Position numbers and translations under genes: made by a program
In this document: positions 7,502 through 64,000 of the stretch, in pieces
How the letters are laid out: each line of letters begins with the position of its first letter
Position numbering within the stretch: the stretch's first letter is position 1
Assembly (NCBI GenBank): GCA_963693365.1
Contig: CAVNZM010000001.1
Coordinates: 2,000,907-2,064,906 of the forward strand
Reading direction: 5' to 3'
Length of the DNA stretch: 64,000 bases
Origin: Amoebidium appalachense
Lineage: Eukaryota > Protista > Ichthyosporea
The notes under the pieces: model-generated
What the model was told of the DNA's origin: nothing
Databases searched by the model: none
What the model saw: the letters and a program-made list of their open reading frames with translations, nothing else

Positions 7502-7764
7502 CGTTAAGATCTCGCAGGCCACCAGCCGATCATGATCTGATTCATGCGATCGGACTGGATAACGATACCATCTTCCAACATCCCCACTCAGGACGAATCG
7601 CAGGATCGCAACCTGTCTCCGCTACCATTTTGGATTTTGTCCTGGTGCAGAGACTAGCGATCTTGCTAGCCTTGAGATCACAACCTAACCACTGCCGATG
7701 GTTGTGATTACGCCAGTAAAGGCGTGCTGGCTTTTACCCCAGCGAGAAGAGGATGAGAAAAAGA

Positions 7765-7837
7765 TGATCCCGACGGGATTTGAACATGCGACCCCTCTAT
7801 CTCCGGTCGAGTGCTCTACCAACTGAGCTACGAGATC
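7765..7837 (-). tRNA. tRNA-like gene inside TRIM LTR (T-stem mutated)
   Basis: Same unit, with GCATGTTCAAAT in place of GCGGGTTCAAAT. Confidence 0.7.
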
Positions 7838-8767: not shown

Positions 8768-8915
8768 TGTTGGAAGATGGTATCGTTATCCAGTCCGATC
8801 GCATGAATCAGATCATGATCGGCTGGTGGCCTGCGAGATCTTAACCGATCTCGTAGCTCAGTTGGTAGAGCACTCGACCGGAGATAGAGGGGTCGCGGGT
8901 TCAAATCTCGTCGGG
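8768..8915 (+). mobile_element. Partial tRNA-bearing TRIM LTR (copy 3); tRNA-like part 8847-8915
   Basis: TGTTGGAAGATGGTATCG... identical to the TRIM LTR start. Inserted in Copia-C gag and truncated near the tRNA 3' end. Confidence 0.88.
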
Positions 8916-17600: not shown

Positions 17601-20600
17601 CCTGTAGACGGGCAGAACGACGGGGTGCAGGAACCGGGGGAGGTGGAGACGGGGGGGGGGGGGAACTTGGAAGTTCGGAATTGCAGGGGGGGCAACCTCC
17701 GGGCTGGACGGGGCCGAGTGGAAGTTGTCGGGGGAGCCGGGTCGGATGGGTGTGACGTTGCCAGGGGCAGGATGAGGGTCGGCAGGCTGGACGGGCACGG
17801 GGGCAGGGGGGCCGGTGGGGGGGGGGTGTCGGGGGAACGACGATGGCAGGAGGGGGGCCAGAGTACACCAGACAAACATCATCTTCAGTGTCAACTGTGG
17901 GGGGTGGGGTGGTCGAGGTAGCAGTGGTGTCGGGGGTCGGAAGTGTTGATGGAATGTCGGACGGGAGATAAGCTGATTCGTCGAAAATCACATCACGGAA
18001 GAGGCCGACACGATGGGTGGTGGGATTGAAGATCCGGTGGCAGTGTGAATGAAGATCATAGCCGATATACATGCCGAGTTTGACGGTGGGGGCCAGCTTG
18101 TTCCGTTTAGAGGCTGGCACGTGAGTGTAGGCAGGGCAACCGAACACTTTGAGCTCGGAGATGTCGGGCTTGACACCGTAGAAAATTTCGAATGGTGTAC
18201 GACCATTGGCAGTCGTGGACGGGGTGACGTTGATGATGTAGGCGGCATGTTGGAGAGCCTCAGCCCACAGTTTGGGGGACAGAGACTGATCTTGGACTTG
18301 ATGGAGGAGGCAACGGACAATCTCTTGGAGGAACCTCATACGACGTTCAACATAGCCGTTCAGTTGAGGGCAGTCCACCGGAGCATAGCTGGCCTTGATG
18401 CCCTGGGAGAGGCAAAAAGCACGGGTAGCCTTGGAGGTGAACTCAGAGCCGGAGTCGAAGTGGTAGACACCAACTTTGGAGGGGCCATGGGTGGCAACGA
18501 GGTTGGTGTGAGCTGTGAGAATGTCCAGGGTGGTGGTACGATCGGCCATCGGGTAGATCTTGACGAGTCCAGAGGCACGGCAGACAGTGACGAGAGCAAC
18601 CTTGGAACCTCCGTACGATGTTGTGGTAGGCTCAAAAAAATCCCAATGCCATTCATGACCGGGGATGTTGGAGTGAGGACGGTCACCCTTGAACGGAGCC
18701 TTGGTGGTTTTACCCATAATGCAGCCATGACAATCAGGAACATCACAGTCGAGGACAGACGAGGGGAGACCAATGACAAGGTCGTGTTTCACCATGTCCT
18801 TGATGCTGGTCATAGCACGGTGCCCCAGACGATGGTGCCAGATGGATGGGTTAACACTGGTAGTGGCAGCCAGAGCCACAGGACGAGTGGGTGGTTGAAT
18901 GGTGTAGTCCTTGAAGTAATACAGACCGTTGTGTAGACGGAGGTTGACGAGATGACGGCCGGTGAGTCGGTCGAAGAGGAATGACGGAGTGGAGGCATCA
19001 TTCAAATCACCCTTGATGTATTCGGCAGCAGCTTGGGATGTTGAAATGAGGAAGGCTTGGCCAGACGGGGTGTAGTAGGCTTCAATGGTAAGGGTGGCAG
19101 TGCCATGGTCGGTGGTGGTGTTGATGACGATATGGCCGGTGTGAGTGGCCAAGACGGGGGTGCCATTGAAGGCAGCAACGGGAGTCGGTGTCGGAAGGGG
19201 AGTGAGGTCATGGAAGAACTCACGGGTGGGGCAAACAGTCATGTTGCACCCGGAATCCCAGGCAGGGTCGGAGGACACGGGGACGGAGCTAGCATTGTAT
19301 GCCGAGAAAGCAAATGAGACAGATTTCTCACTGCCTTGACGGGAACGGTTGTGTCTGGACATACGGCATTTCGGCTCAGGGCAATCGATGATCGTGTGAT
19401 CAGGCTCGTGGCAGTAGGAGCATGCTTTCACGGACGGGGTGTTAGAACGAGCCGGGGAATCAGAACGACGGGAACCCGAGAAACGGGAACGACTGGGGGA
19501 ACGAGACGTGGACCGGAAGGCAGGCCGGTGGGGGGAACGGGATCGGGTGTGCTGACGGGAGAGACGAGTTCGGAGGTCCGTGCCAGGGGTACGGTCAAGT
19601 CGGTTGCGTAAGTCACGGCGAGGAAGATCACGGGGGGGAGCACTGGCATTTAATGCCATGCTGGACTTGGAGACACGGTGGGCACGGTTGCTCCGGAGTT
19701 GCATCTTGAGGTCTTGACGTAACTCGATGCCCTTGACGTGGTTGTGGAGGGACTCGAAGTCGGGGAATAGCTTATCACCGAAGTGATAGTCTTCGATAAG
19801 ACGGTTGAACTCAGGGGTGAGGTCGTCTCTGGTGGTGAGTTCATTGAAGAACTTCTCAGCGAGACGAGTGAAGTGAATGGACTCATCTTGGAGGGACTGG
19901 AGCTGGTTCACGATGGTCTGCAGACGACTCAGGGAGGTGGTGAATGATTCACCGGGCTGAAGGGCACAGGCATCCCACTGACGGTGAAGGATGCGGATCT
20001 GATCGGGTTTGCCTTGGAGGTAGTGTTGACGGAATTTCCACATGGCCCGTTCAGGGTCCATGCCAATACGGTACTGGGCAACGGTGGTGAGGACGGAAGG
20101 GTCGATGTTCTGTATCATATGGAGCAGGAGGCAATTGCGGGCCTCCTTGAGTTCCGCGGTAGTGCCGTAGCCATAGAAGGGGGGTTCACCGTCAACCGCG
20201 ACGGTGGTAGGGGGGACGTAGTTGTCAGCAAGTACAACATCCACGAGTCGGACACCTTTAGTGCCGGTCATCATGCCGAGAAAAATGATTTCCCATTGAA
20301 AATAGGTGGTTTTGCTATCGGGACCAGTCTTCCCTTCACCTTTCCACATGGTTATTTTGTTTACACCAGTTTTGTTTGGATCCATGATTGAAAAACGAGC
20401 GCTAGTTCTAGATGTGTGTAGGGAGCGTGCAAAAGGGCTGCATAACCTGTTAAATTATATAAGTATTTGGGATGAAAGCAGAGACACAGTGGTGCAGTGT
20501 GAAAACACCACAGACACACACAACAACAAAACACGGAACGATCGGAGCAGTGTACACGACAGACATCAATGTTTAGACACGACTGAACTGAATTTATTCT

Positions 20601-21372
20601 GATCTTCGAATAAATACCTGAAATTCCTCTAAGTCCAATCCATACGTGATTTCCGACCAGTCGGAAATCAGATCTATCTCTAATAGAAACCAATCACTAA
20701 GAACCAATTGCTTTCAGAGAGATCCGGTACGCGGAGACGTACACGATAGGACACAGACACTAGTTAAGGTCAACTCGTGTCATCATCAAGGAAGTTCTAA
20801 CCTATGACATACTGCAAAGACTCAGACATATCACACTTAACCTTGATGATTGGTTAAAGCCCGGCAACACATGAAAACTAAAGTAAATTAACGAAGTCTA
20901 AACACACATGCTATTCTAAGTGTAGCCTAAGTGTGTCACCGTCCAATGAACACGTATTAAGTAACACAAATCTACCTAACATATATTAGTAGAAAAGAAA
21001 CACGATTATACACATGAAGACAAGGAGAGAAAGAAAAGAAAATAAGGAAGGAGAAAGAGAAAGGAAAAGAGAGCACAGATCAACAAACAAGATAGTAATA
21101 GCATAACTATAACCAGAGATATTTATGTACACACGAACATGTACACGTCTCTCCCTGAGTGGGTGGATCCGTGTACACACATATAAATATTCTAATCGAT
21201 ATTACAATACACGATTAGAGCCGATACAACACGATTACAAGTATACAAGCATATCGGAGATCGATGCTACACTTTACATAATAGGAGTGTGGCATATACA
21301 CTAAGCATATGAACTGAAACATAACACAAACTGAGAAGATCTTACCATATCTAAATACTACGTATTACAACA
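14608..21372 (-). mobile_element. Full-length Copia-A element; 925-bp A2 LTRs at 14608-15532 and 20448-21372
   Basis: TG...CA LTRs that are nearly identical, TSD CCACC on both sides, PBS, PPT and a single long ORF. Confidence 0.96.
15976..20385 (-). CDS. Ty1/copia gag-pol polyprotein (1469 aa)
   Basis: Order is Gag with CCHC knuckle, protease (WDSGC), integrase, RT (YVDD), RNase H. Two compensating poly-C indels alter the IN-RT linker. Confidence 0.95.
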   Translation of the reverse strand: MDPNKTGVNKITMWKGEGKTGPDSKTTYFQWEIIFLGMMTGTKGVRLVDVVLADNYVPPTTVAVDGEPPFYGYGTTAELKEARNCLLLHMIQNIDPSVLTTVAQYRIGMDPERAMWKFRQHYLQGKPDQIRILHRQWDACALQPGESFTTSLSRLQTIVNQLQSLQDESIHFTRLAEKFFNELTTRDDLTPEFNRLIEDYHFGDKLFPDFESLHNHVKGIELRQDLKMQLRSNRAHRVSKSSMALNASAPPRDLPRRDLRNRLDRTPGTDLRTRLSRQHTRSRSPHRPAFRSTSRSPSRSRFSGSRRSDSPARSNTPSVKACSYCHEPDHTIIDCPEPKCRMSRHNRSRQGSEKSVSFAFSAYNASSVPVSSDPAWDSGCNMTVCPTREFFHDLTPLPTPTPVAAFNGTPVLATHTGHIVINTTTDHGTATLTIEAYYTPSGQAFLISTSQAAAEYIKGDLNDASTPSFLFDRLTGRHLVNLRLHNGLYYFKDYTIQPPTRPVALAATTSVNPSIWHHRLGHRAMTSIKDMVKHDLVIGLPSSVLDCDVPDCHGCIMGKTTKAPFKGDRPHSNIPGHEWHWDFFEPTTTSYGGSKVALVTVCRASGLVKIYPMADRTTTLDILTAHTNLVATHGPSKVGVYHFDSGSEFTSKATRAFCLSQGIKASYAPVDCPQLNGYVERRMRFLQEIVRCLLHQVQDQSLSPKLWAEALQHAAYIINVTPSTTANGRTPFEIFYGVKPDISELKVFGCPAYTHVPASKRNKLAPTVKLGMYIGYDLHSHCHRIFNPTTHRVGLFRDVIFDESAYLPSDIPSTLPTPDTTATSTTPPPTVDTEDDVCLVYSGPPPAIVVPPTPPPHRPPCPRARPACRPSSCPWQRHTHPTRLPRQLPLGPVQPGGCPPCNSELPSSPPPPSPPPPVPAPRRSARLQGKVGFQATTTLPVPPGPPINIDQLPKLVRQLCSGPNGDQVKSALTAEYQAFVDKDIFDLVDPPPGANIVGFKWIVSEKTLNSAGDTKIKARGVAQGFSQQYGVDYELIESPVIRPAALRAILALAVVEGHDIHQLDVSTAFLNSPLTETIYMKQPPGFITMATLGKVWRLKKALYGLKQASKAWYDFLDGILLAHGLTRTKTDPCIYLRFFPNNDVVRAGNYVDDSTITNTRGSTAASDLAAHISKMASCRMSPFDRMLGVDFNHSDPHHLHMHQRSYIMDIIHDFNLTDAKSKSTPIPAGTTVSLADCPPQPFTVPYRELLGRLLWVARCTRPDIAYAIGFLGRFSTNPGKTHWDLLRRVARYLLGTIDLGIDYKYSATQSPILECYTDADFAGCADSKKSTTGYIIEFAGMPIIWYSKLQPITATSTTEAELIALNAGTQEVAWVRDLFKELGCPMLAPTPVYCDNQSTIAIVNSTGIKHRTKHIAVRYHNTKDYIASGDVVVHYVESAHNLADILTKPLPGPSHVHHRARLCLPDIVD

Positions 21373-32383: not shown

Positions 32384-33244
<861 letters not shown>

Positions 33245-36866: not shown

Positions 36867-38053
36867 ATGCCGCCGAAAAAGCGCCAGGCCTCAGCCACCG
36901 CCCCTGCCGCGGCACCCAAGCGCCTGACCCGCAGCGACCTCCGCCACAGGCTGACCAACGCTCCCGCGGACACTGACGCGCCTCCAGCGGCCCATACCAC
37001 CACGGACCCGGACCCGCCGGCTAGTCCCCCCTCCCCTCCTGAAGTCCCCCCTCAGGCCCCGCCGTCCCCCGCAGATGACTTCTCAAGACGCCGTCCTTGC
37101 CGCCCTCACCGCCATCAGCACCCAGATGGCTGGCGTCCTGGCTGCTCTCACCAACCGCGACCCTCCCGCGCCCCCCGCCGCGCCCTCCGCACCCGGGGAG
37201 ATTTCCCCCGGGGCTGCATCTCGGCCCTGACCTAGACCTACCTGCCCTGCCCGCGCCCCCCATCACAGGTGAGAACACTGGCGACATTCAGCCGGGCACA
37301 CTCCCGCTTCCCCCCGCGGATGTGCTGGCAGATTTGCGCGCCAATCGTTTCGTCGACCTGTATAAGTTCACCCCCGCCGCCCTCCTGGCCCCATACAAGA
37401 AAGGTCAGCATCTGCGCATGGCCGACGACGGCAGCATCGAGACTTTTCGCCAGGACAAACCCGTTCCCCTGCGTTCACTCGTCATTTGGATCCAGGCTTG
37501 GACCCATTACATGGCCGCCAAGCACCACCTCGGCCTCCCCACGGACAAAGACGTACTTTGGACTCAGCACATCACTCGCCTCAGCTGGGCCCAGATCCAC
37601 AACTATGACGTATACGCCCGAACCGTTGCCCACCAGCAGGGTCGGGCTCCGATCGAGTGTCCCAACCTGCTCGCCCAACTCCACCAGGATCTCCTCTTGC
37701 CACCCACTCTGCTCATCCCGGACGCATGTCAGCGCTGTGGCTTCCCCGACCACCCCAGCGCGGCCTGCCCCATGTACCCCAAGCCCGGCTGTGGTCTTGA
37801 CGGCTTTAAGCCGCCCCACAAGCCCGGCGGGGGTCAAACCCCTAACCGCCCTGGCCCGCAACCCGGCCCGGCAAAACCGGCCCGACCCGTGGATCTACCC
37901 GCGACGCACTGCAGGAATTTCCACATTAACGGTCGGTCCTGCGCTAAGCAGCCCTGCCCCTTCTCCCACGTGTGCCCGCTGCTCTGGCACACACCCCCGC
38001 AAAGACTGCAAACACAATGCCTAGTCTACGCGCACACCCACATACACAGCTAG
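36867..38053 (+). CDS. Ngaro ORF1 (gag-like, C-terminal Cys/His zinc fingers), frameshifted
   Basis: MPPKKRQ... start; NRFVDLYKF, WIQAWTHY, CRNFHINGRSC..PCPFSHVC. Pieces lie in different frames. Confidence 0.82.
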
Positions 38054-38325
38054 AACATAGGGGTTAGGAGCTAGGACACACGAGTACAGGGAAACGGAGC
38101 TCGGGAGAACGGGCCCATAGGGCTGAGTACAAAATTTCGCAGGCCAAACTACGGCGCCCGCGCGCGTCAAGAATAAATGTCCCTACACAAAGACGTTTAT
38201 TCTGGCCACTGCACATAATTATACTCCCCCCCTCCCCCATCCCACGAGCCTCCCCCCCCCCCTTACACTCACCCAGCACTCCCTCCCCCCCCTTCTTCTA
38301 CCTCTGTGTCCGCCCACACCCCCGC

Positions 38326-38437
38326 GTGCTCGGGCACATTCCCCTGCACAGGGCCCCGCTGCCCTCCCTGCCAACCTTCACTCGGGCCCAGCTGCCCTAC
38401 TCTAACCCCCCCGGGGCCCTGCTGTTCCCCCCCCCCC

Positions 38438-38478
<41 letters not shown>

Positions 38479-40284
38479 CTGCCGGGATCTCCCCGAGGGT
38501 GCCCCACCCTTGCTAACCATCCCTTCCCCCGAGGCTCAGACCCGGAGGCCCGCCCGCTGCCTCAGCACCACATTGACACCTCCCGCCTCCGGGAACTGCT
38601 GGCCTCCTACCCAGACCAATCATTCGCCGCACAACTCCTCCACGATGTCGAATTCGGTGTCGACATCGGCTATCGCGGCCCCTCCACCTCTCGGGTGGGC
38701 CCCAACCTACCCACCACCCCGGAGGCAGCTTCCGCTATCACGGCGGATATTGCCAAAGAAGTCGCCCTCGGCCACCTGCGCGGCCCCCTCTCCCCAGCCC
38801 AATTCTTTGACGAATTTCCGGTCCACCGTTCCTCCCCCATCGGCGCCGTTACCAAGAAAGGGAACCCCCTCAAGTACCGTCGAATCCACCACCTCTCCTG
38901 GCCCCGGGGTAGCAGTGTCAATGACAGCATCACCTACCCCGACGAACTTCAGTACATTCGCGCCCGGGATGTCACCCAACTCATTCTCGACGCAGGCCCC
39001 GGCTGCTACATGGCCGTGGCAGATGTGCAGGCTGCCTTCCGGCACATGCCCATCCGACCGGAAGACCACCACTTAATGGCATTCAAATGGCAAGGGCATT
39101 TTTACGTTGAAACCAGACTGCCCTTCGGCCTGAAATCTAGCCCAGCCATCTGGGAACGGATCGTGGCCACCCTACAGTGGCTGGCACACCAGCACGGTAT
39201 TACCCTCATCCGCCACTACGTAGACGACTGGATTATAGTCGCCCCCACACAAGAGCAGTGCCAACGTCACCTATCCACCTTCCTGCAACTCTGCCGAGAG
39301 CTGCACATTGCCATCTCCGAAGACAAGATGCAGGGCCCGGCTACCCGTATCGTCTTCATCGGTATCGAATTCGACTCCATCGCCATGGAGGCACGAATCC
39401 CGGCTTCCAAGCTCTCGGACCTACTCGACCTCACTTCCCACCCAAAGCCCACCATCACCATTCGGGACCTCCAGTCCCTCCTCGGCAAACTCACCTGGTG
39501 TGCCCAGCTGGTTCCCCCCGGGAGGGCCTTCTCCCAGCGCCTATGGGCCCTTCTCCGGACCCACCCACACCTTGCCGGCCACCACCACATACGACTGACT
39601 GCTGCCGCCCGGGCCGACATAGCCGAATGGCACCAGTTCCTCACATCATGGAATGGGGTGCACCTCATCACACCCCCCACATACACCACCCTGGCCACCG
39701 ATGCTGCCGGATCGGTGGGTCTAGGAGGCCACTGGCTCGACCAATGGTTCTTCATGCCCTGGTCCCCCTCCACCCAAGCCCTCTATGCTCATGAGGGTAA
39801 ACTCGGTTCTTCCGTCATCGAACTCCTGGCCATCGCAGCCGCCGTGGCCCTCTGGGCCCCCTCCTGGTCCACCCACCATGTCCGTATTTTATGCGACAAC
39901 ACGGGTGCTGTGTCTGACCTGCACTCCCGGTCTTCCCCCCACCCCGTGATGGCCAAACTTATTCGGTTCATCACCCGCATGGAAATGCAATACCAATTTA
40001 CCTTACAGGCATCCTACCTACCAGGACCCCTCAACCATCTGGCCGATGCCATTTCTCGTAACCAACTTCCCCGGGCCCGACGACTCCGACCTTCCCTGCA
40101 ACCGGAGCCCTGCCGCTTCCCCTCCTGGGTCCACGAGCTCCTATCCCTTCCCTTGGGCTACCCCCCCCCCCCCCCCCCCCCCCAGATCTCCCGTTCCGGA
40201 GCAACGCTGGCAGATTGGCCCCCCACTTTGCTCCGGCCGAGCTGCTTCGAGCCACCACTACCCTGCAGGAATGCCAAGCCCTGA
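38326..40284 (+). CDS. Ngaro/DIRS reverse transcriptase-RNase H
   Basis: SSPIGAVTKK, KYRRIHHLS, ADVQAAFRHMPI, LPFGLKSSP, HYVDDW, TDAAG, ELLAI, CDN, NHLADAISR. True start uncertain. Confidence 0.92.
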
Positions 40285-41247
40285 GTCTCAACCTCGACTC
40301 TCGGGCCTTTTACTCCCGGGTGCAAAAAGTGTTCATCGATTTCTGTGTGGCATCTCGGCTGCAATCCCCCTCCGGGTCCTCCCTCCCGGCCTCCCCACAC
40401 ACCGTGCAACTTTTTTCTCGCCTGGTGTGCCCAACGAGGGGTACAGGCCTCTTCCTTAACCGGCTACAATTCGGCCATCACCAGGCTCCACCTCGACATG
40501 GGCCTCCCTGCTCCCTACCCCCACGACAAGTCTCTGGCCTGGTTCCTACGGGGGGTGGGCAGATGGCAGCTTTCTCACAACATCCGACCCCGCTCATCAA
40601 CCAGGGAACCCCTCCTGCCCTCCCACCTCAGCCTACTTCATGGCCAGTGCCCCACAAAGGCCTCCTCGGCCAATCTCCGGCTATGGACAGCCCTCATCGT
40701 CGGTTTCTGTGGCCTCCTCCGTTCAGGGGAATTTACCTCCAAGACCCTGACTTCTTTCAACCCGTCCCGTCACGTTAAACGGAAAGACGTGACCTTCACC
40801 TACACCCCCACCGGTACTTTGTCCCATGCCACCCTCCACCTGCCAACCTCTAAGACGGATGTACAGGCCCGAGGTGTCAACGTCACTCTAGCTGCCCTGC
40901 CCCTCACCCACTTCTCCCCAGCCCATCTCCTCCGGCAGTTCCTGGATACAACGTCCGGTCAACCCGACGACCCCCTCTTCAGTCTCGGTGGCATCCCCTA
41001 CACCAAGAGTGCTTTCTCTGCCGAGTTCCGTGCCCTCCTCTCCCGGGCAGGCCTCTCACCCTCCCGGTTTGCCGGACACAGCCTCCGCATCGGGGGGGCC
41101 ACAGCACTGGCTGAGGCCGGGGTCGACGACTCCCGGATCAAACAACTCGGCAGGTGGTCCTCCGACTGTTTCCTGATCTATACACGACTTCGTCCGGCCT
41201 CCATTGCTGCCACTACCACACGTGTATTCGCCTCGATTCTTAAGTGA
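40215..41247 (+). CDS. Tyrosine recombinase of the retroelement (one frameshift near 40400)
   Basis: GFCGLLRSGE, LPTSKTD, GHSLRIGGAT, LGRWSSDCFLIY: the R-K-H-R-W-Y catalytic set. Confidence 0.92.
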
Positions 41248-50906: not shown

Positions 50907-52080
50907 TCATCGTGTGGTCTTCTACTACACCTGGGGCCCTGGACAGCAGCTTCCTCTACACTGCTTCCCAGTTGGAACGTCTACTACTACGATTCTGTAT
51001 ATGTATTTTTTTTTTTTTGCCTTAAGTGGGGTTTGCCCACTTTAAGGGTTCATCGATTAGCACAACACATATACACCTGAGGCTAGCCACCTTTGCGAAT
51101 ACTGCCGACTCCCAGTCCCACTGAGTCACAACACATAGGTTAATGTTTCCACGGCTGGCTCCCGTTCTTATATATATTATATCTTCACCTGCATATTTTT
51201 TTTTCTTCCTTGGTTGTTTTCCTTCCTTTGCTGTTGTTGCCCCCCCCCCCCCCCCCCCCCCCCCCCGGCGCCCCATCCTTTAATTTTTATTTCTTTTTAT
51301 TTATTTTTTCACTTTCCGTTTCCGTTCTCAAGTGGGGAGTTTTTAGAGATTCAGTGGGGATATATGTGAGAACACAAACTTCAAGTCTTAAGTGGGGATG
51401 TTGAAGTACGTAGTTTGTACATGTGTAAGATCTTTCAGTTTGTGTTTATGATTCAGTTCATAGCATTAATGTAAAAGTCACCCTCCTTGTTCGTAAAACT
51501 GTTAATCGATCTCAAAATATGTTTTCGTGTCTGTAATCGTGTCATATTGGCTCTAATCGTGTGTTGATCTAAAGATTAGAATATAGATATGTGCCTGCAC
51601 GAATCCACTCAGTAGGAGTGCTCGTGCATATGTTTGTGTGTACATGAATATCTTATGTTGTAACTGTGCTATCGTGTTCATGTTTGTTGTTCTGTGTTCC
51701 TCTCTTTTTCTCTCTTCTCTTCTTCTCTTTTCTTTCCTCCTTTTCCCTGGTGTTCATGTGTGTGATCACTGTTCTTTCTCCCTAATATATGTTGAGTCAA
51801 TTCGTGTGAAGTAGATGTGTTTTGATTGAAAGAAAAACACATAGGCTACACCATGTACTATTTTATGTGTCAATAGTTTATTCAACTATGTTTGTTTTGC
51901 GAATTGCCGCGGTCTAACCAATCACTAGACTAGTCATAACGTGTCCCTGCCGTTAACCTCAATAATAGGTTAGAAATTAGTGTCAAGGTTTACAGTTTCT
52001 TTGTTGGAAGATGGTATCGTTATCCAGTCCGATCGCATGAATCAGATCATGATCGGCTGGTGGCCCGCGAGATCTTAACC

Positions 52081-52153
52081 GATCTCGTAGCTCAGATGGT
52101 AGAGCACTCGACCGGAGATAGAGGGGTCGCGGGTTCAAATCCCGTCGGGATCA
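52081..52153 (+). tRNA. tRNA-like gene in TRIM 5' LTR (anticodon loop CCGGAGA)
   Basis: 73-nt cloverleaf with A box TAGCTCAGATGG, B box GGTTCAAATCC and a T5 tract at 52156-52160. Confidence 0.8.
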
Positions 52154-52450
52154 TCTTTTTCTCATCCTCTTCTCGCTGGGGTAAAAGCCAGCACGCCTTT
52201 ACTGGCGTCATCACAACCATCGGCAGTGGTTAGGTTGTGATCTCAAGGCTAGCAAGATCGCTAGTCTCTGCACCAGGACAAAATCCAAAATGGTAGCATG
52301 AACAGGGGTTCAGTGGGGACTGAGGGGGCAGTCCACCCTAACCTGATTCTGCGATTCGTCCTGAGTGGGGATGTTGGAAGATGGTATCGTTATCCAGTCC
52401 GATCGCATGAATCAGATCATGATCGGCTGGTGGCCTGCGAGATCTTAACC

Positions 52451-52523
52451 GATCTCGTAGCTCAGTTGGTAGAGCACTCGACCGGAGATAGAGGGGTCGC
52501 GGGTTCAAATCCCGTCGGGATCA
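52451..52523 (+). tRNA. tRNA-like gene in TRIM 3' LTR
   Basis: Same cloverleaf as 52081-52153; A box TAGCTCAGTTGG. Confidence 0.8.
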
Positions 52524-54229
52524 TCTTTTTCTCATCCTCTTCTCGCTGGGGTAAAAGCCAGCACGCCTTTACTGGCGTCATCACAACCATCGGCAGTGGT
52601 TAGGTTGTGATCTCAAGGCTAGCAAGATCGCTAGTCTCTGCACCAGGACAAAATCCAAAATTCTTCGTGACTGTGTTCTTATGCCTTGCCGTGATCTATT
52701 GCGAGTGTTGGATCTATTGTTGTTTTTGTACGTGTCTAAGGGAGCAGAGTGCACAGAGGTGTCATGTAAAACACGACTAACACATTAATGAGAGGGCAAT
52801 CGGAGTTGTTCACGAGACATTGAAAGATTCAAACAACAACTGATTCTTTATTGTGCTCTCGGTTCCTTTTGTACTTGCGACTTATCAGCTTATCACAACT
52901 AAAGAGGGAGAACCAATCGGTTCTATCAGAAGACAGAAAAACACATTCCGACAGAGCATACGCATTCCAACTTCCGATTAAACTAAAGTTTAGAAACTCT
53001 TACTTAAATAAATTAAGTAATTATACATCTAGTCACTATTAACTCACATATATATTTATGTTCGTCTCTATAAAGAAACCTATTTAAATACATATATTTC
53101 CTAATAGTCGACACTCTCAAAGTGAAGACACTTTGCAATAAACCGAATTCCATATATATCTATTGTCCAATCACAACACACATATATTAACAGACAGGAA
53201 TGCACAACACAATCTACAGATGTACTCGCTCGCGACTATGTAAACAGTTGGACTAGTTAGGATAAGGCAGAGTACAACTGAATCAAAATAAAGACAGAGA
53301 ACGGGTAGAAAGGCACATGCGGCCAGGTTGCTTTTACTATGGGCCGACTCAGTCTGTCTCAGACTTCACTGATGTGATCCCCGTACTGGGACGGCTTTCT
53401 TATATAGCCCCCAGGTTTCGGATCAAGGCCCAGGATTGGTTCATCCGCGGCCAGCGCGGGTGGCAACATGCCATTCGTGATTCTGGTGCGGTCCGAGCCA
53501 GTCAGACCTTTGTCCTATTTATGCAAACCTCTTATTGGTTCACTTCGTTTATGTGGTATGCAGCTGAAGAACCATATATGGTTCAATTCTTAGATCAGAG
53601 TGAGTCCTATTGGTGCGGACATAATATTTATGTGATATTCATGACAAAGCACGAATCGTGTGCTAGTAGATCACATTCTTTAGTAAACATGTACAGTTCA
53701 TGTGTACAGTTGTTTACACTCCCCCCCTTGTCGGGAGCCTGGTGGTGTCGTTAGACAAGCAAACCACCAGGCTGAGAGGCGATAAACAACCTTCAGCGAG
53801 AATTCTTGTGCGCCGAGCTGCTGGGCAGAACAGAGCAAGGACGGTTGAATAGAGTTGTGCACGTCTATGAGCACTTCTTCATTTGCCAAAACGTAAATTC
53901 ATGCAGCATTCTTCTGTGATTTCATTTTCGTGGCGAAGATTGTTGCAGAGTGTGCGTGCGAATAATTCGCTAAGCCTTCGTCTCTGTGCTTGGCTTTTCT
54001 GTAGAAGTAGTATTTTCCTTTTTGGGAATTTTTCCTTTTTAGGATACTCCCGCAGATTCGTTTTCAATTGCGAGTAATTTGGTTGTGTGGATGAATGATC
54101 ATACCAAACATTCGATAATGAATATAACTCGAGCCTTAGGTCACTTCGTAGCTCAGGTAGTGGTGGATAGCTTCAAGGCTTAGCCACTGCTCCTTATCCC
54201 GGTTCTACCATAAGACTGTAAGGCGAGTC

Positions 54230-54420
54230 ACCATGGCCGGAAAAGCCGCTTCTTTCATGAACAAATAGCACTTCTTTCCTTTCAGCTTTAACTCTGCATC
54301 ATCGGAGCTGGGAAAAACATGAATAAAAATGCCCAAGTGTTCTTCGTTGGGCGACATAAAGAAATATATCACCCGTCAGAACCAGTAAAAGCCCGGTTCA
54401 TAATTCATAAGAAGAGGGTA
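54230..54420 (-). pseudogene. Highly decayed Ty3/gypsy RT remnant
   Basis: Manual translation gives IMNRAFTG...NEEHLGIFIHVFPSSDDAELKLKGKKCYLFMKEAAF, resembling the gypsy EEHL..V...L..AGLKL...KC.F....FLGH segment. Confidence 0.65.
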
Positions 54421-56207
54421 GGCAGAGCAAGCCTCCTTCAGAAAACACATGCTTCCATTCGTGAGCAGTTTTCGTATCCCATTTGCCAGCCATTTTCGTT
54501 GAGCAGGGGGATTCCAGGCATAATACATTCTTCTGGAGGCTTGGCCTAAAAAGAAAAGTCGTCGGAGTCGCCCTTTCTTTTGTAAGCAACTTCGTGAGCG
54601 CGCTTCGTGTTTTCATATCCTCCAGTGCAGGTCTGGATGGTGCCCCATCCTCTGCTTCATTTGTAGGTGGCCCTACTGTAGGTTCTGTTCGTTGTGTGGA
54701 ATACCAAAACCATTCGTATTCGTGGAACTGCTTTGTGCTGTGCTTTCTTTCGTGTTGGTGTTCATGAAGTTACCCCGTTCACACACCCTACTTCTTACAT
54801 ACATTAGATGTAAGTAGCTGCCTGGTGAGTGTGTGGTTCGTGTTCGTGGCATTCTTCTGTTCCTTCGTGAGAAGAATATTCGTTTTAGCAGAGGTGCCCA
54901 ATAAGGCAGCTTGTGGGGTTGTCTCCCCGCATGTGCCCATTGGTGGGGTATGCACGTGCTAAATTGTTACAGTGTCATCATATTGCAAGGGAATAACATG
55001 GTCATCTCCGTACCAAAGCCTAAATACACATGATGGTCCGATGTGTTAGTCAACAACACCTTGCATTCGTATTCGTATTCGTCTTCCACGTCACTTTCTT
55101 CAGTAGTGAAGGAGGGTATTCGTAATTCGAAACTGAAAGGCTTCCAGCCAAAATACTGACACTGTATGCTGGGGTTGTGAGGGAACGGTGCCCATACCAC
55201 ATTCTTTTGTTCTGGTGGGGGTGTGCCGGCAGCTAGTGCAAGGCTTGACAGTGTAATTCGTATGTTACAGTATTGCCACAGACTGGCAAGTACCATTAAA
55301 TTCGTACCCCACACCTTCGTTTGTCTTTCACATGCACGAACAAAAGTTCTGCATCGACTTTATTAACAACATGCCTTCTGTGCACCAAGAGTGCAAATTC
55401 GTTTGGGCATGGCACCAGGAAGGGCCATACATGAGGCATATGTTCGTAATGTGTTTAGGCATGCCAGCATACATTCATGCGCATGTTGTGCATCCTGTGC
55501 GCTAAACTATGGGGCATGCTGTATTCGACAACAGCAAGGGATTCGAAGCATGCATGCAACACTACTTTCATAAGATCTTAGGTCCTACATGCTATAGCAA
55601 CAGCGACTATCTTCTTCGTTAAGTGCATTTGTGCTGAAAGTGGCCGTGCATCTGGCTTGCGAGTGTGGACGTGCATGCGGTGGCATGGACACGATGGCAG
55701 TGTGCAATAGGGCAATGCACGCAAGGGCAACGGTTTTATTTTCTTCCTAACATAGAGGGGGCTGTGTGCATTGCAACCCAAGCAGTGTTGTGCATTCGTC
55801 CTTTCATTTTCGTATTTCCAGTTCATTTTGCTTTCGTTTTTCGTTTTTTGTCGTTTGATAACTTCGTTACTTCGTTTTGTTTTCGTGTTGCATTCATTTC
55901 GTATTTCCTCTATGCAATCGTTTGTCGTTAATTCTTTATTTCATTGCGTATTCGTGATGGTTCGTTTTTCGTTGGTTCATTGCTTCGTTAGCAATTCTTT
56001 ATTCGTTTGTTCGTGTATTCGTTGTTTCGTTGTGTATTCGTTTTTCTTCACATTTTTGATGTGTCGTAGCAAAAGAAGTTTTACATGCTTTCAATTCTTT
56101 CCGTGTAGGTGGGCTGGCCACTTCAAACTTGTAGGTGTATATATTCTAAGCCGGACAAGGAAAGATGTGCCTATCATCGGGGTAAAAAGGATTGTGATCG
56201 GCCATGG

Positions 56208-56292
56208 GAGATTCTTGAGCTGATTGAAAGATGTGAGATTCTTGAACTGATTGAAAGATGTGAGATTCGAAGGATTCGAGATTCTTGAACTG
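56208..56292. repeat. 27-bp tandem repeat next to the element D PBS
   Basis: GAGATTCTTGARCTGATTGAAAGATGT twice, plus partial copies. Confidence 0.85.
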
Positions 56293-57045
56293 CGTGGTCG
56301 CCAATGTAAACAGTTGGACTAGTTAGGATAAGGCAGAGTACAACTGAATCAAAATAAAGACAGAGAACGGGTAGAAAGGCACACGCGGCCAGGTTGCTTT
56401 TACTATGGGCCGACTCAGTCTGTCTCAGACTTCACTGATGTGATCCCCGTACTGGGACGGCTTTCTTATATAGCCCCCAGGTTTCGGATCAAGGCCCAGG
56501 ATTGGTTCATCCGCGGCCAGCGCGGGTGGCAACATGCCATTCGTGATTCTGGTGCGGTCCGAGCCAGTCAGACCTTTGTCCTATTTATGCAAACCTCTTA
56601 TTGGTTCACTTCGTTTATGTGGTATGCAGCTGAAGAACCATATATGGTTCAATTCTTAGGTCAGAGTGAGTCCTATTGGTGCGGACATAATATTTATGTG
56701 ATATTCATGACAAAGCACGAATCGTGTGCTAGTAGATCACATTCTTTAGTAAACATGTACAGTTCATGTGTACAGTTGTTTACAGACTATTGGCGAGCCA
56801 TCCTTTTTGAGAACAAAACTAGGCCATTTTGAAATAAAGGAAAGACAACGAGTGAGGCTAGCCAATCACGCTACCTCTCAGATAAACAGAGGAGAGCAAA
56901 CAGAAATAAAATACAATAAGTTCTTATCAGGCAAGAGAGCCAGGTGTGCACAGATCTACAGATATCTGTGCCCACAGAAACAAGGGAGAGAGAGATACGG
57001 GGGGGGGGGGGGGGGGGGGGAGAGAGAGAGAGAGGGAGAGAGAGA

Positions 57046-57076
<31 letters not shown>

Positions 57077-58453
57077 CACAAAGAAGGAAAGCAGACACGA
57101 ATACAAACAAGCTAGGACACATACATACTTCAAGGCTCTTGCTGTCATACATGGTGAGGTATTCCAACATCCCGACTCAAGGGGTTGAAGTTTGTGTTCT
57201 CGTGTCTGTTGATGTGACGGTAGATGAGGTCCAAACACAGGAGGGGCCGTCACACTCAAGTTTCCCCACTCGAGGATGCAAACCGAAGATCCTTGAGGTG
57301 GGAAGGAGAGAATCAAAACTGAAGAGGCACACAACGACGGTTGCCTCTGAAGACTCGAAATAAGATATCATGGTGGTTATCGGCGATATATATATATATA
57401 TAGGAAACACTAGTGTATGTGTGACGTGTTGGTGGCTAATGGTTTATACTGGGGACCACCCATTTATGTTGTAATACGTAGTATTTACATATGGTAAGAT
57501 CTTCTCAGTTTGTGTTATGTTTCAGTTCATATGCTTAGTGTAAATGCCACACTCCTATTATGTAAAGTGTAGCATCGATCTCCGATATGCTTGTATACTT
57601 GTAATCGTGTTGTATCGGCTTTAATCGTGTATTGTAATATCGATTAGAATATTTATATGTGTGTACACGGATCCACCCACTCAGGGAGAGACGTGTACAT
57701 GTTCGTGTGTACATAAATATCTCTGGTTATAGTTATGCTATTACTATCTTGTTTGTTGATCTGTGCTCTCTTTTCCTTCCTCTTTCTCCTTCCTTATTTT
57801 CTTTTCTTTCTCTCCTTGTCTTCATGTGTATAATCGTATTTCTTTTCTACTAATATATGTTAGGTAGATTTGTGTTACTTAATACGTGTTCATTGGACGG
57901 TAACACACTTAGGCTACACTTAGAATAGCATGTGTGTTTAGACTTCATTAATTCACTTTAGTTTTCATGTGTTGCCGGGCTTTAACCAATCATCAAGGTT
58001 AAGTGTGATATGTCTGAGTCTTTGCAGTATGTCATAGGTTAGAACTTCCTTGATGATGACACGAGTTGATCCTAACTAGTGTCTGTGTCCTATCGTGTAC
58101 GCCTCCGCGTACCGGATCTCTCTGAAAGCAATTGGTTCTTAGTGATTGGTTTCTATTAGAGATGGATCTGATTTCCGACTGGTCGGAAATCATGTATGGA
58201 TTGGACTTAGAGGAATTTCAGGTATTTATTCGAAGATCAGAATAAATTCAGTTCAGTCGTGTCTAAACATTGATGTCTGTTGTGTACACTGCTCCGATCG
58301 TTCCGTGTTTTGTTGTTGTGTGTGTCTGTGGTGTTTTCACACTGCACCACTGTGTCTCTGCTTACATCCCAAATACTTATAGAAATTAACAGGTTATGCA
58401 GCCCTTTTGTACGCTCCCTACACACATCTAGAACTCGCGCTCGTTTTTCAATC

Positions 58454-61400
58454 ATGGATCCAAACAAAACTGGCGTAAACAAAATCACCATGTGGAAAGG
58501 TGAAGGGAAGACTGGTCCCGATAGCAAAACTACCTATTTTCAATGGGAAATCATTTTTCTCGGCATGATGACCGGCACTAAAGGTGTCCGACTCGTGGAT
58601 GTTGTCCTTGCTGACAACTACGTCCCCCCTACCACCGTCGCGGTTGACGGTGAACCCCCCTTCTATGGCTACGGCACTACCGCGGAACTCAAAGAGGCCC
58701 GCAATTGCCTCCTGCTCCATATGATACAGAACATCGACCCTTCCGTCCTCACCACCGTTGCCCAGTACCGTATTGGCATGGACCCTGAACGGGCCATGTG
58801 GAAATTCCGTCAACACTATCTCCAAGGCAAACCCGATCAGATCCGCATCCTTCACCGTCAGTGGGATGCCTGTGCCCTTCAGCCCGGTGAATCATTCACC
58901 ACCTACCTGAGCCGTCTGCAGACCATCGTGAACCAGCTCCAGTCTCTCCAAGATGAGTCCATTCACTTCACTCGTCTAGCTGAGAAGTTCTTCAATGAAC
59001 TCACCACCAGAGACGACCTCACCCCTGAGTTCAATCGTCTTATCGAAGACTATCACTTCGGTGATAAGCTATTCCCCGACTTCGAGTCCCTCCATAACCA
59101 CGTCAAGGGCATCGAGTTACGTCAAGACCTCAAGATGCAACTCCGGAACAACCGTGCCCACCGTGCCTCCAAGTCCAGCATGGCATTAAATGCCAGTGCT
59201 CCCCCCCGTGATCTTCCTCGCCGTGACTTACGCACCCGACTTGACCGTACCTCTGGCACGGACCTCCGAACTCGTCTCTCCCGTCAGCACACCCGATCCC
59301 GTTCCCCCCACCGGCCTGCCTTCCGGTCCACGTCTCGTTCCCCCAGTCGTTCCCGTTTCTCGGGTTCCCGTCGTTCTGATTCCCCGGCTCGTTCTAACAC
59401 CCCGTCCGTGAAAGAATGCTCCTACTGCCACGAGCCTGATCACACGATCATCGATTGCCCTGAGCCGAAATGCCGTATGTCCAGACACAACCGTTCCCGT
59501 CAAGGCAGTGAGAAATCTGTCTCCTTTGCTTTCTCGGCATACAATGCTAGCTCCGTCCCCGTGTCCTCCGACCCTGCCTGGGATTCCGGGTGCAACATGA
59601 CTGTTTGCCCCACCCGTGAGTTCTTCCATGACCTCACTCCCCTTCCGACACCGACTCCCGTTGCTGCCTTCAATGGCACCCCCGTCTTGGCCACTCACAC
59701 CGGCCATATCGTCATCAACACCACCACCGACCATGGCACTACCACCCTAACCATTGAAGCCTACTACACCCCGTCTGGCCAAGCCTTCCTCATTTCAACA
59801 TCCCAAGCTGCTGCCGAATACATCAAGGGTGATTTGAACGATGCCTCCACTCCGTCATTCCTCTTCGACCGACTCACCGGCCGTCATCTCGTCAACCTCC
59901 GTCTACACAACGGTCTGTATTACTTCAAGGACTACACCATTCAACCACCCACTCGTCCTGTGGCTCTGGCTGCCACTACCAGTGTTAACCCATCCATCTG
60001 GCACCATCGTCTGGGGCACCGAGCTATGACCAGCATCAAGGACATGGTGAAACACGACCTTGTTATTGGTCTCCCCTCCTCTGTCCTCGACTGTGATGTT
60101 CCTGATTGTCATGGCTGCATTATGGGTAAGACCACCAAGGCTCCGTTCAGGGGTGACCGTCCTCACTCCAACATCCCCGGTCATGAATGGCATTGGGATT
60201 TTTTTGAGCCTACCACAACATCGTACGGAGGTTCCAAGGTTGCTCTCGTCACTGTCTGCCGTGCCTCTGGCCTCGTCAAGATCTACCCGATGGCCGACCG
60301 TACCACCACCCTGGATATTCTCACAGCTCACACCAACCTCGTTGCCACCCATGCCCCCTCCAAAGTTGGTGTTTACCACTTCGACTCCGGCTCTGAGTTC
60401 ACCTCCAAGGATACCCGTGCTTTTTGCCTCTCCCAGGGCATCAAGGCCAGCTATGCTCCGGTGGACTGCCCTCAACTGAACGGCTATGTTGAACGACGTA
60501 TGCGGTTCCTCCAAGAGATTGTCCGTTGCCTCCTCCATCAAGTCCAAGATCAGTCTCTGTCTCCCAAACTGTGGGCTGAGGCCCTCCAACATGCCGCCTA
60601 CATCATCAACGTCACCCCGTCCACGACTGCCAATGGTCGTACACCATTCGAGGTTTTCTACGGTGTCAAGCCCGACATCTCCGAGCTCAAAGTGTTCGGT
60701 TGCCCTGCCTACACTCACGTGCCAGCCTCTAAACGGAACAAGCTGGCCCCCACCGTCAAACTCGGCATGTATATCGGCTATGATCTTCAATCACACTGCC
60801 ACCGGATCTTCAATGCCACCACCCATCGTGTCGGCCTCTTCCGTGATGTGATTTTCGACGAATCAGCTTATCTCCCGTCCGACATTCCATCAACCCTTCC
60901 GACCCCCGACACCACTGCTACCTCGACCACCCCACCCCCCACAGTTGACACTGAAGATGATGTTTGTCTGGTGTACTCTGGCCCCCCTCCTGCCATCGTC
61001 GTTCCCCCGACACCCCCCCCCCCCACCGGCCCCCCTGCCCCCGTGCCCGTCCAGCCTGCCGACCCTCATCCTGGCCCTGGCAACGTCACACCCATCCGAC
61101 CCGGCTCCCCCGACAACTTCCACTCGGCCCCGTCCAGCCCGGAGGTTGCCCCCCCTGCACTTCCGAACTTCCAAGTTCCCCCCCCACCGTCTCCACCTAC
61201 CCCGGTTCCTGCACCCCGTCGTTCTGCCCGTCTCCAGGGCAAGGTTGGACTTCAAGCCACCACCACCCTGCCAGTCCCCCCCGGTCCCCCCATCAACATC
61301 GACCAACTACCCAAACTTGTCCGTCAACTCTGTTCCGGACCCAATGGTGATCAGGTCAAGTCAGCCCTGACTGCTGAGTATCAAGCCTTCGTCGACAAAG

Positions 61401-62863
61401 ACATCTTTGAACTTGTTGACCCTCCCCCTGGTGCTAACATCGTCGGCTTCAAGTGGATTGTCTCCGAGAAAACTCTCAACTCGGCTGGTGACACCAAGAT
61501 CAAGGCACGTGGTGTTGCTCAAGGCTTCAGTCAGCAATACGGTGTTGACTATGAGTTGATTGAGAGCCCTGTCATCCGTCCGGCTGCTCTCCGTGCCATC
61601 CTAGCTCTGGCCGTTGTTGAAGGTCATGACATACATCAACTCGACGTGTCTACGGCCTTTCTCAACAGCCCACTCACCGAGACCATCTACATGAAACAAC
61701 CCCCGGGATTCATCACCATGGCCACACTTGGCAAGGTCTGGAGACTCAAGAAAGCCCTGTACGGCCTCAAGCAAGCCTCCAAGGCTTGGTACGACTTCCT
61801 CGACGGCATTCTTCTTGCCCATGGCCTGACCCGTACTAAGACCGACCCGTGCATCTACCTCCGGTTCTTCCCCAACAACGATGTGGTACGGGCTGGTAAC
61901 TACGTCGATGACTCCACCATCACCAACACCCGGGGTTCTACTGCTGCCAGTGACCTGGCTGCCCACATCAGCAAGATGGCCAGCTGTCGTATGAGTCCAT
62001 TTGACCGTATGCTCGGTGTTGATTTTAATCACTCTGATCCCCATCACCTCCACATGCACCAGAGGTCTTACATCATGGATATCATCCACGACTTCAACCT
62101 CACCGATGCCAAGTCCAAGTCTACCCCCATCCCTGCAGGCACCACCGTCTCCCTGGCTGATTGCCCCCCCCAACCGTTCACCGTGCCCTACCGTGAGTTA
62201 CTCGGCCGTCTCCTCTGGGTGGCACGGTGCACACGTCCCGACATTGCCTATGCCATCGGCTTCCTTGGTCGGTTCAGCACCAACCCCGGCAAGACTCACT
62301 GGGACCTTCTCCGTCGTGTGGCCCGGTACCTGCTCGGCACCATTGACCTTGGCATTGACTACAAGTACTCGGCCACCCAGTCCCCCATACTCGAATGCTA
62401 CACGGATGCTGACTTTGCTGGTTGTGCCGACAGCAAGAAGTCTACCACCGGCTACATTATCGTGTTTGCTGGTATGCCCGTCATCTGGTACTCCAAGCTC
62501 CAGCCCATCACGGCCACCAGCACCACTGAAGCTGAGCTGATTGCTCTCAATGCTGGCACCCAAGAAGTTGCTTGGGTCCGTGACCTCTTCAAGGAACTCG
62601 GCTGTCCCATGCTTGCTCCGACTCCGGTGTACTGTGACAACCAGTCGACCATTGCCATCGTCAACTCCACCGGCATCAAGCACCGTACCAAACACATTGC
62701 CGTCCGGTATCACAACACCAAGGACTACATTGCCAGTGGGGACGTGGTTGTCCACTACGTTGAGTCAGCCCACAACTTAGCTGACATACTCACCAAACCC
62801 CTCCCCGGCCCGAGTCATGTCCACCATCGTGCTCGACTTTGTTTACCGGATATTGTGGATTGA
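58454..62863 (+). CDS. Intact Ty1/copia gag-pol polyprotein (1469 aa from MDPNK)
   Basis: All domain motifs lie in one frame. The ORF track extension back to 58280 starts at a non-ATG codon within the LTR. Confidence 0.96.
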   Translation: MDPNKTGVNKITMWKGEGKTGPDSKTTYFQWEIIFLGMMTGTKGVRLVDVVLADNYVPPTTVAVDGEPPFYGYGTTAELKEARNCLLLHMIQNIDPSVLTTVAQYRIGMDPERAMWKFRQHYLQGKPDQIRILHRQWDACALQPGESFTTYLSRLQTIVNQLQSLQDESIHFTRLAEKFFNELTTRDDLTPEFNRLIEDYHFGDKLFPDFESLHNHVKGIELRQDLKMQLRNNRAHRASKSSMALNASAPPRDLPRRDLRTRLDRTSGTDLRTRLSRQHTRSRSPHRPAFRSTSRSPSRSRFSGSRRSDSPARSNTPSVKECSYCHEPDHTIIDCPEPKCRMSRHNRSRQGSEKSVSFAFSAYNASSVPVSSDPAWDSGCNMTVCPTREFFHDLTPLPTPTPVAAFNGTPVLATHTGHIVINTTTDHGTTTLTIEAYYTPSGQAFLISTSQAAAEYIKGDLNDASTPSFLFDRLTGRHLVNLRLHNGLYYFKDYTIQPPTRPVALAATTSVNPSIWHHRLGHRAMTSIKDMVKHDLVIGLPSSVLDCDVPDCHGCIMGKTTKAPFRGDRPHSNIPGHEWHWDFFEPTTTSYGGSKVALVTVCRASGLVKIYPMADRTTTLDILTAHTNLVATHAPSKVGVYHFDSGSEFTSKDTRAFCLSQGIKASYAPVDCPQLNGYVERRMRFLQEIVRCLLHQVQDQSLSPKLWAEALQHAAYIINVTPSTTANGRTPFEVFYGVKPDISELKVFGCPAYTHVPASKRNKLAPTVKLGMYIGYDLQSHCHRIFNATTHRVGLFRDVIFDESAYLPSDIPSTLPTPDTTATSTTPPPTVDTEDDVCLVYSGPPPAIVVPPTPPPPTGPPAPVPVQPADPHPGPGNVTPIRPGSPDNFHSAPSSPEVAPPALPNFQVPPPPSPPTPVPAPRRSARLQGKVGLQATTTLPVPPGPPINIDQLPKLVRQLCSGPNGDQVKSALTAEYQAFVDKDIFELVDPPPGANIVGFKWIVSEKTLNSAGDTKIKARGVAQGFSQQYGVDYELIESPVIRPAALRAILALAVVEGHDIHQLDVSTAFLNSPLTETIYMKQPPGFITMATLGKVWRLKKALYGLKQASKAWYDFLDGILLAHGLTRTKTDPCIYLRFFPNNDVVRAGNYVDDSTITNTRGSTAASDLAAHISKMASCRMSPFDRMLGVDFNHSDPHHLHMHQRSYIMDIIHDFNLTDAKSKSTPIPAGTTVSLADCPPQPFTVPYRELLGRLLWVARCTRPDIAYAIGFLGRFSTNPGKTHWDLLRRVARYLLGTIDLGIDYKYSATQSPILECYTDADFAGCADSKKSTTGYIIVFAGMPVIWYSKLQPITATSTTEAELIALNAGTQEVAWVRDLFKELGCPMLAPTPVYCDNQSTIAIVNSTGIKHRTKHIAVRYHNTKDYIASGDVVVHYVESAHNLADILTKPLPGPSHVHHRARLCLPDIVD

Positions 62864-63077
62864 CCCGACCTACTTCAAGAGTGATTTTCTCATGTGTACT
62901 ACTTACTTTATCAACATCATTATATCATATGTATTGCCTTTGTGGGTATGCCCACTTAGGGTTTATATATAAGGTTTGACCTGTACCATCACTCTACTCT
63001 ATCTTTCACTGGTTTAAAACCCAGTTAATCAAACACCGCCTATACACGTTATATATATTCGTTGTTTTTGCCCCGGT

Positions 63078-63155
63078 TCCTTCCCCCCCTCCCCCCCCCC
63101 TTCCCCCCCCCTTCCCCCCCCTTCCCCCCCCCCCCCTTCTCCCCCCCCCCCCCCC
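63078..63155 (+). repeat. Interrupted poly-C tract in the Copia-A 3' UTR (G-rich on the opposite strand)
   Basis: Runs of 7-15 C separated by T or TT. Also at 548-652 and 15649-15754 with different lengths. Confidence 0.9.
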
Positions 63156-64000
63156 GGAAAAGTACACACTTTAATTTTTTTTTTTCCGTTTCTGTTCTCA
63201 AGTGGGGAGATTTCACTAGTTCAGTGGGGATATGATAACACAAACTTCAAAGTCTTAAGTGGGGATGTTGTAATACGTAGTATTTACATATGGTAAGATC
63301 TTCTCAGTTTGTGTTATGTTTCAGTTCATATGCTTAGTGTAAATGCCACACTCCTATTATGTAAAGTGTAGCATCGATCTCCGATATGCTTGTATACTTG
63401 TAATCGTGTTGTATCGGCTTTAATCGTGTATTGTAATATCGATTAGAATATTTATATGTGTGTACACGGATCCACCCACTCAGGGAGAGACGTGTACATG
63501 TTCGTGTGTACATAAATATCTCTGGTTATAGTTATGCTATTACTATCTTGTTTGTTGATCTGTGCTCTCTTTTCCTTCCTCTTTCTCCTTCCTTATTTTC
63601 TTTTCTTTCTCTCCTTGTCTTCATGTGTATAATCGTATTTCTTTTCTACTAATATATGTTAGGTAGATTTGTGTTACTTAATACGTGTTCATTGGACGGT
63701 AACACACTTAGGCTACACTTAGAATAGCATGTGTGTTTAGACTTCATTAATTCACTTTAGTTTTCATGTGTTGCCGGGCTTTAACCAATCATCAAGGTTA
63801 AGTGTGATATGTCTGAGTCTTTGCAGTATGTCATAGGTTAGAACTTCCTTGATGATGACACGAGTTGATCCTAACTAGTGTCTGTGTCCTATCGTGTACG
63901 CCTCCGCGTACCGGATCTCTCTGAAAGCAATTGGTTCTTAGTGATTGGTTTCTATTAGAGATGGATCTGATTTCCGACTGGTCGGAAATCATGTATGGAT

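Follow-up and report, generated by a model that had tools for sequence, protein, structure and literature searches.

The 64,000-nucleotide stretch of DNA analyzed here (the window) consists almost entirely of nested retroelements, namely copia ORFs, a tyrosine-recombinase element and integrase fragments. Within it lies a 659-bp element with a tRNA-like unit in each of its two LTRs, which raises the question of what this element is and how it could be copied and inserted. No coding capacity was detected: the longest ATG frame has 101 codons, and a Pfam search with the 112-residue open frame over it gave no match. It is highly probable that the element is a miniature LTR retrotransposon (TRIM) of the Helenus type, which would be transcribed by RNA polymerase III (Pol III) from the tRNA unit of its LTR, primed by initiator tRNA and integrated by a copia integrase.

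The complete copy 1 (52002–52660, forward strand, as are all its parts) sits in a copia-type element that starts at 51399, within its LTR region. Its 289-bp LTRs (5′ LTR, 52002–52290, start TGTTGGA, end TCCAAAA; 3′ LTR, 52372–52660) are identical at 287 of 289 positions (99.3%), with two differences, and enclose an 81-bp interior that begins with TGGTAGC and ends with AGTGGGGA. A perfect 5-bp target-site duplication (TSD), TTCTT, is present on both sides (51997–52001 and 52661–52665). The empty site is found in contigs from two of the four runs compared (the public DNA runs X7 and X2), which connect 51996 to 52661 and skip 664 bases (659 + 5), leaving one TTCTT. An earlier sequence-only reading, which had described two 289-bp repeats around a site for primer binding (PBS) plus a polypurine tract (PPT) with flanking TTCTT, was exact to the base. 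Copy 1 is hence confirmed as a genuine, young, gene-less LTR element. Its LTR is rich in hairpins (fold z −4.6; segment after the tRNA unit, z −3.8). The terminal dinucleotide is AA, not CA, in all four complete LTRs of copies 1 and 2, and directly abuts the duplication or the PBS in each. CA is the LTR end usually joined by integrases.

Copy 2 (7292–7916, reverse strand, 625 bp) is inserted in a copia C-family LTR and comprises a 5′ LTR (7628–7916), an interior of just 47 bp (7581–7627) and a 3′ LTR (7292–7580). Its 289-bp LTRs show 10 differences, and its duplication (7287–7291 and 7917–7921) has one mismatch, C>T at a CpG. This second insertion had been proposed together with a visible empty site, and both are found: the target is preserved in a related LTR at 32961–32965 (forward strand), and a second single-copy target is present at 53109–53113 (reverse strand). 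The third, partial copy, likewise anticipated, retains LTR positions 1–148 (8768–8915, forward strand), with a left junction exact at TG; the 3′ part is lost, and there is no T5 tract. Uninterrupted host sequence at this site is seen as loose ends at 8767 in runs X2 and X7. The window thus holds three independent insertion sites, with the TG start fixed in all. The repeat that truncates copy 3 (8921–9300) occurs once in the window; its depth is high in the DNA runs as well as in those guessed to be RNA, and it shows one back-joint from 9035 to 8942. At LTR position 65, a CpG site, both complete copies have C in their 5′ LTR and T in their 3′ LTR, and copy 3 also has T (52066, 52436, 7852, 7516, and 8832); parallel deamination or conversion may underlie this pattern. 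The depth of single LTR contigs in run X2, about 4600 against 38–47 for the shallowest contigs listed, suggests a number of LTRs on the order of 100, subject to the tool's warning against reading depth as copy number and to a much lower LTR depth ratio in run X9.

A dimeric tRNA-derived SINE, a tandem pair of tRNA genes or an assembly artefact might give a similar appearance, and inspection covers only two complete copies. Against these readings, the TG start is fixed at three insertions with 5-bp duplications, a PBS and a PPT stand between the repeats, and no tail is present. tRNA-derived SINEs are recognized by a lack of LTRs, a tail and a duplication of variable length, none of which applies here. 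Contigs of runs X9, X18, and X20 are continuous from LTR through interior to LTR, and the empty-site joint, recovered in independent runs, largely refutes this group of explanations, to which we give almost no credence.

The tRNA-like unit is 73 nt long and occupies LTR positions 80–152. In copy 1 it lies at 52081–52153 in the 5′ LTR (ARAGORN; Rfam 55.5 bits) and at 52451–52523 in the 3′ LTR (Rfam 57.4 bits). The A box (52088–52099) and B box (52132–52142) of the 5′ LTR unit form a predicted Pol III internal promoter and part of a predicted R region. ARAGORN and Rfam find five such units in the 64 kb, every one in a TRIM LTR, with Rfam tRNA scores of 57.4, 57.4, 55.5, 42.3, and 40.4 bits (gathering score 29). 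TRIMs of this kind inflate tRNA gene counts, here by five false tRNA-Ser calls over 64 kb. On the sense strand, no run of at least four T occurs other than a T5 tract, one per LTR, right behind the unit (52156–52160 and 52526–52530 in copy 1). Three of four complete LTRs retain intact acceptor, D and T stems and both boxes, and the anticodon arm has drifted. The fourth, the 5′ LTR of copy 2, has a T-stem broken by two changes adjacent to the B box, which shows that TRIM copies decay, and is the only one in which the first G of the B box is altered.

Could the unit be a functional or regulatory tRNA amplified by the TRIM? Rfam scores reach 57.4 bits, ARAGORN calls tRNA-Ser(GGA), and the acceptor, D and T arms of the isolated 73 nt fold. 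The 3′ LTR unit, with its GGA anticodon, also has C33, a G30–A40 mismatch, A73 and a variable loop of 5 nt. In Ser tRNAs, the variable arm is long and position 73 is G. The unit is unlikely to decode, because C33 and the G30–A40 mismatch are joined by a Ser anticodon in company with a 5-nt variable loop and A73. Moreover, in the predicted fold of the unit in its LTR context a competing hairpin displaces the acceptor stem. Together with a 3′ end that resembles Trp rather than Ser (below), these features make a functional tRNA very improbable. The sequence-only reading of a complete tRNA-like gene in each LTR therefore stands for the cloverleaf, which is complete (Rfam 55–57 bits, followed by T5), and is unlikely to hold as regards a working tRNA, given C33 and G30–A40.

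The 3′ end of the unit points to a likely origin. Compared by eye with the 3′ ends in Fig. S2 of Kojima 2024, the final 16 nt of the unit agree best with bee tRNA-Trp, at 14 of 16 positions, and next best with Ser-TGA, at 11 of 16, among 12 distinct ends representing nine amino-acid types, 11 types being absent from that figure. Both differences from the bee tRNA-Trp end preserve pairing in the TRIM. The unit is thus likely to derive from tRNA-Trp. An exact 32-nt pattern of the unit had no match in metagenome contigs. A 25-nt pattern matched 25 viral loci, of which 15 were scanned (14 tRNA-Lys(TTT), one without a call), and a gapped pattern matched five loci (four tRNA-Asp and one tRNA-Leu). 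Since ordinary viral tRNA genes match such patterns, the isotype is not fixed by short matches.

Three further structural ideas were tried and set aside. The sequence upstream of the unit does not score as a decayed second tRNA (33, against a shuffle mean of 35.6). An upstream arm that blocks the cloverleaf to protect the RNA from tRNA processing did not pass its controls: its 7-nt complement is attained by 30 of 5000 shuffles, but the acceptor stem of the unit likewise does not form in 40 of 40 shuffles of the region, which points to no specific role for the arm. Finally, the first and last tRNA halves of the genomic RNA might pair into one giant tRNA-shaped molecule. In copy 1 the modelled end-to-end pairing probability is 0.81–0.96 with leaders up to 8 nt and falls to 0 with a 12-nt leader, and in copy 2 it is 0.02 with leaders of 4–8 nt; the result is not robust, and the giant molecule is weakly supported.

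From the A and B boxes and the T5 tract, we infer a Pol III promoter in the LTR. The cycle proposed here builds on the observed anatomy, the observed insertion with duplication and the presence of several copies. In the 5′ LTR, Pol III would initiate just ahead of the tRNA unit and occasionally read through the weak T5, as production of a genomic RNA would require, to stop at the T5 of the 3′ LTR, the predicted end of the genomic RNA. A single T5 per LTR predicts a short RNA of about 80–90 nt in addition to a read-through RNA of about 450–460 nt, in which the tRNA unit would serve as the repeated R region. The minus strand would then be primed by the 3′ end of the host initiator tRNA and the plus strand by AGTGGGGA, and a copia integrase would insert the DNA, creating a 5-bp duplication. 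The minimal terminator in budding yeast is T5, and six T are needed for a relatively efficient stop (bioRxiv 2021.08.27.457903). The T5 of the 5′ LTR would lower the yield of full-length RNA, and more so if the host terminates efficiently at T4–T5. Contigs spanning LTR, interior and LTR occur in X18 (335 nt at depth 1837) and X20 (400 nt at depth 105). They are a weak hint of TRIM transcripts, both runs being from one sample that is only guessed to be RNA; gaps in the cover of these runs over some neighboring repeats are not taken as evidence.

The T5 right behind the 5′ unit, which should stop some Pol III, would be less of an obstacle if the element were an ordinary Pol II TRIM whose ancestral LTR took up a tRNA gene or SINE as a mere passenger. 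The Helenus promoter also lacks experimental validation in the available text of Kojima 2024. The pattern of conservation argues the other way: stems and boxes have been kept and the anticodon arm has drifted, as expected under selection on promoter and fold, and the LTR has just 79 bp ahead of the unit. We regard the passenger explanation as improbable, and transcription by Pol III from the LTR unit as the better account.

The enzymes for such a cycle would have to come from elsewhere, and it had been suggested that they are borrowed from the resident copia families. The PPT AGTGGGGA (52364–52371, forward strand) abuts the 3′ LTR as it does in those families, and the AGTGGGGA/TGT junction and the TGTTGGAA start claimed to be common to the TRIM and resident copia were both verified. 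A 12-nt upstream purine-tract motif (52308–52319, forward strand) recurs unchanged in resident copia elements, in their 3′ UTR (e.g. 63219–63230), a match with an E value of about 0.5 on its own, notable only by position. Resident copia elements likewise make 5-bp duplications. Reliance of the TRIM on copia enzymes is supported by the 5-bp TSD and the shared purine-tract motifs. An intact copia gag-pol ORF of 1529 residues with integrase and RVT_2 domains (58274–62863, forward strand) represents the kind of element that could supply them, although its primer site (58392) differs. In each of the four resident copia families that were checked, the interior opens with a GGTT.. half-tRNA site of the anticodon-loop type, in none with TGG; within the window, TGGTAGC[A/G] is confined to TRIM interiors. 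In Kojima 2024 (PMC10886601), fungal Helenus families are matched to copia elements that share their primer type. Because the primer-site type of the TRIM differs from that of the four resident families and Helenus pairs with same-type copia, the helper is probably a copia element lying outside the window. Thus the suggested dependence on copia is supported, whereas its assignment to the residents is not, given the GGTT sites of the four families checked and the absence of TGG among them.

The neighbors merit brief description. The resident primer sites at 5021, 8311, 10355, and 58392 share the GGTT start and then differ between families, which suggests several half-tRNA primers, or decayed sites, within one genome. 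The copia elements at 14608–21372 (reverse strand) and 57467–64000 (forward strand) are 97.6% identical, with intact ORFs of 1492 and 1529 residues and 925-bp LTRs; several solo LTRs of this family have perfect 5-bp duplications, and two of its LTRs are 100% identical. The family is very recently active. A 3.5-kb LTR element (53238–56784, reverse strand), nested in a copia C-family LTR, has 481-bp LTRs at 99.6% identity and a 5-bp duplication. Its primer site is TGGCGACC, and its 2.6-kb interior contains no open frame of at least 200 residues; it is a young LARD-like non-autonomous element. At 37079–41247 (forward strand) lies a DIRS/Ngaro-like tyrosine-recombinase retrotransposon with RVT_1 and phage-integrase domains. 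Protein searches found no close annotated relatives of its recombinase (best relative, 55% identical) or of the resident copia reverse transcriptase (best-scoring relatives, 27–40% identical across most of the query).

The PBS differs between the interiors of copies 1 and 2. In copy 1 (52291–52306, forward strand) it comprises a 7-nt match to the initiator tRNA 3′ end, four mismatches, and five matches in the copy 2 register. This long interior, whose perfect primer match is just 7 nt, is the common form (runs X2, X7, X18, and X20). Position 52306, inside the degenerate site, is A instead of G in the X18 contig; in runs X7 and X2, about one-half to two-thirds of the depth carries this A. Relative to the long form, the copy 2 interior shares the first 7 and last 27 bases, with one mismatch, and has 13 other bases in place of 47. 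Its PBS is extended (7600–7627, reverse strand): the complement of its first 28 interior bases corresponds to tRNA positions 49–76, with a 5-bp T-stem, a 7-nt loop, A54, A60, G70, U72, and CCA, and has C at position 58. Eukaryotic initiator tRNAs are marked by A1:U72, C3:G70, A54, A60, and m1A58 (PMC3950347); m1A58 normally halts the copying of the primer into plus strand (PMC8599865), and a mismatch results when m1A is read through (PMC4787781). The simplest reading of copy 2 is that reverse transcriptase passed A58, misincorporated and re-annealed at a downstream 8-nt near-match, so that the middle was deleted. The C at position 58 could also be a later point mutation. A pattern for the host initiator tRNA had no match in metagenome and viral contigs.

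It is tempting to speculate further that this is an independent tRNA-Trp-derived TRIMp3 family outside fungi, animals and plants, integrated through an AA end, with copy 2 as a fossil of reverse transcriptase running past a methylated A58. We put this combination forward tentatively and think it somewhat unlikely as a whole. If true, tRNA-primed copying of LTR type and host modification of A58 could be read directly from DNA. A host outside fungi, animals and plants would in itself widen the range of Helenus and support its repeated birth, and the AA end and the proposed copy 2 read-through bear on the tolerance of copia integrase and reverse transcriptase acting in trans.

Helenus (TRIMp3), which the earlier reading had named as a tRNA-bearing TRIM group, comprises TRIMs with tRNA-derived LTR sequence in fungi, animals and Selaginella (Kojima 2024, PMC10886601). 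According to the same source, the group probably arose several times and its promoter is without experimental test. Beyond Kojima 2024, no report of tRNA-bearing TRIMs was found in a literature coverage that takes in few subscription journals; a 2026 sugar-beet survey merely cites Helenus in its available text (PMC13570524). The suggested link is borne out: all testable features that define Helenus in the available text are present in the window TRIM. Two LTRs lie within a total below about 1 kb (659 and 625 bp; listed Helenus lengths, 311–1263 bp, PMC10886601), the PBS and PPT stand at the ends of a non-coding interior, the TSD is 5 bp (4 bp in animals, 5 bp in fungi and plants), and self-priming is excluded by a unit 3′ end that differs from the PBS complement. 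Six TRIM motifs of 11–13 nt gave no hit in a text search of Data S1 (PMC10886601), where line breaks can split motifs. On the strength of this result the TRIM appears to be a new family of an already described kind, new as far as the Kojima catalog goes.

Other known systems are more distant. Cassandra and Ajax, too, are TRIMs in which each LTR holds a unit derived from a Pol III gene. Theirs consists of 5S rRNA sequence, whereas Rfam finds only tRNA, and no 5S rRNA-derived sequence, in the window TRIM. The 5S content of Cassandra is documented (PMC7215508), and its transcripts begin in the 5′ unit and finish in the 3′ unit (PMC10886601). tRNA-derived SINEs (SINE2) are likewise non-autonomous and have A and B boxes; they lack LTRs, PBS, and PPT and use a LINE, whereas the window TRIM possesses each of these three features, along with a fixed duplication of 5 bp. 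The hammerhead ribozyme of retrozymes is absent from the window at the gathering score, and from copy 2 at E values up to 10. In the wasp LTRs Helenus-2_SyJa and Helenus-2_SyUm of Data S1, a putative hammerhead-ribozyme core, which goes unmentioned in the available text, is apparent by eye.

Among the Helenus families in the available catalog, the closest layouts are those of fungal Helenus-5_PGr and Helenus-1_CCin, which have 3′-end initiator primer sites, and of plant Helenus-1_SMo. The window TRIM has in common with Helenus a short non-coding LTR element with an A/B-box tRNA unit per LTR followed by a short T tract, a PBS starting TGGTAGC, a PPT, a 5-bp TSD, a copia-type helper (here predicted) and an isotype mismatch within the tRNA unit; the listed fungal families have copia-type 5-bp TSDs, TGGTAGC sites and short T tracts. 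It differs in its probable tRNA-Trp origin, unlike Helenus families predicted to encode Thr or His tRNAs, in a tRNA unit placed early in the LTR and followed by a long hairpin-rich stretch, and in the AA end of its four complete LTRs, although non-CA ends are known among listed Helenus LTRs too (LTR-1_PGr, Helenus-10_PTrit). The window TRIM thus adds a young, structurally clean family to Helenus, a group whose Pol III promoter is, according to Kojima 2024, experimentally untried.
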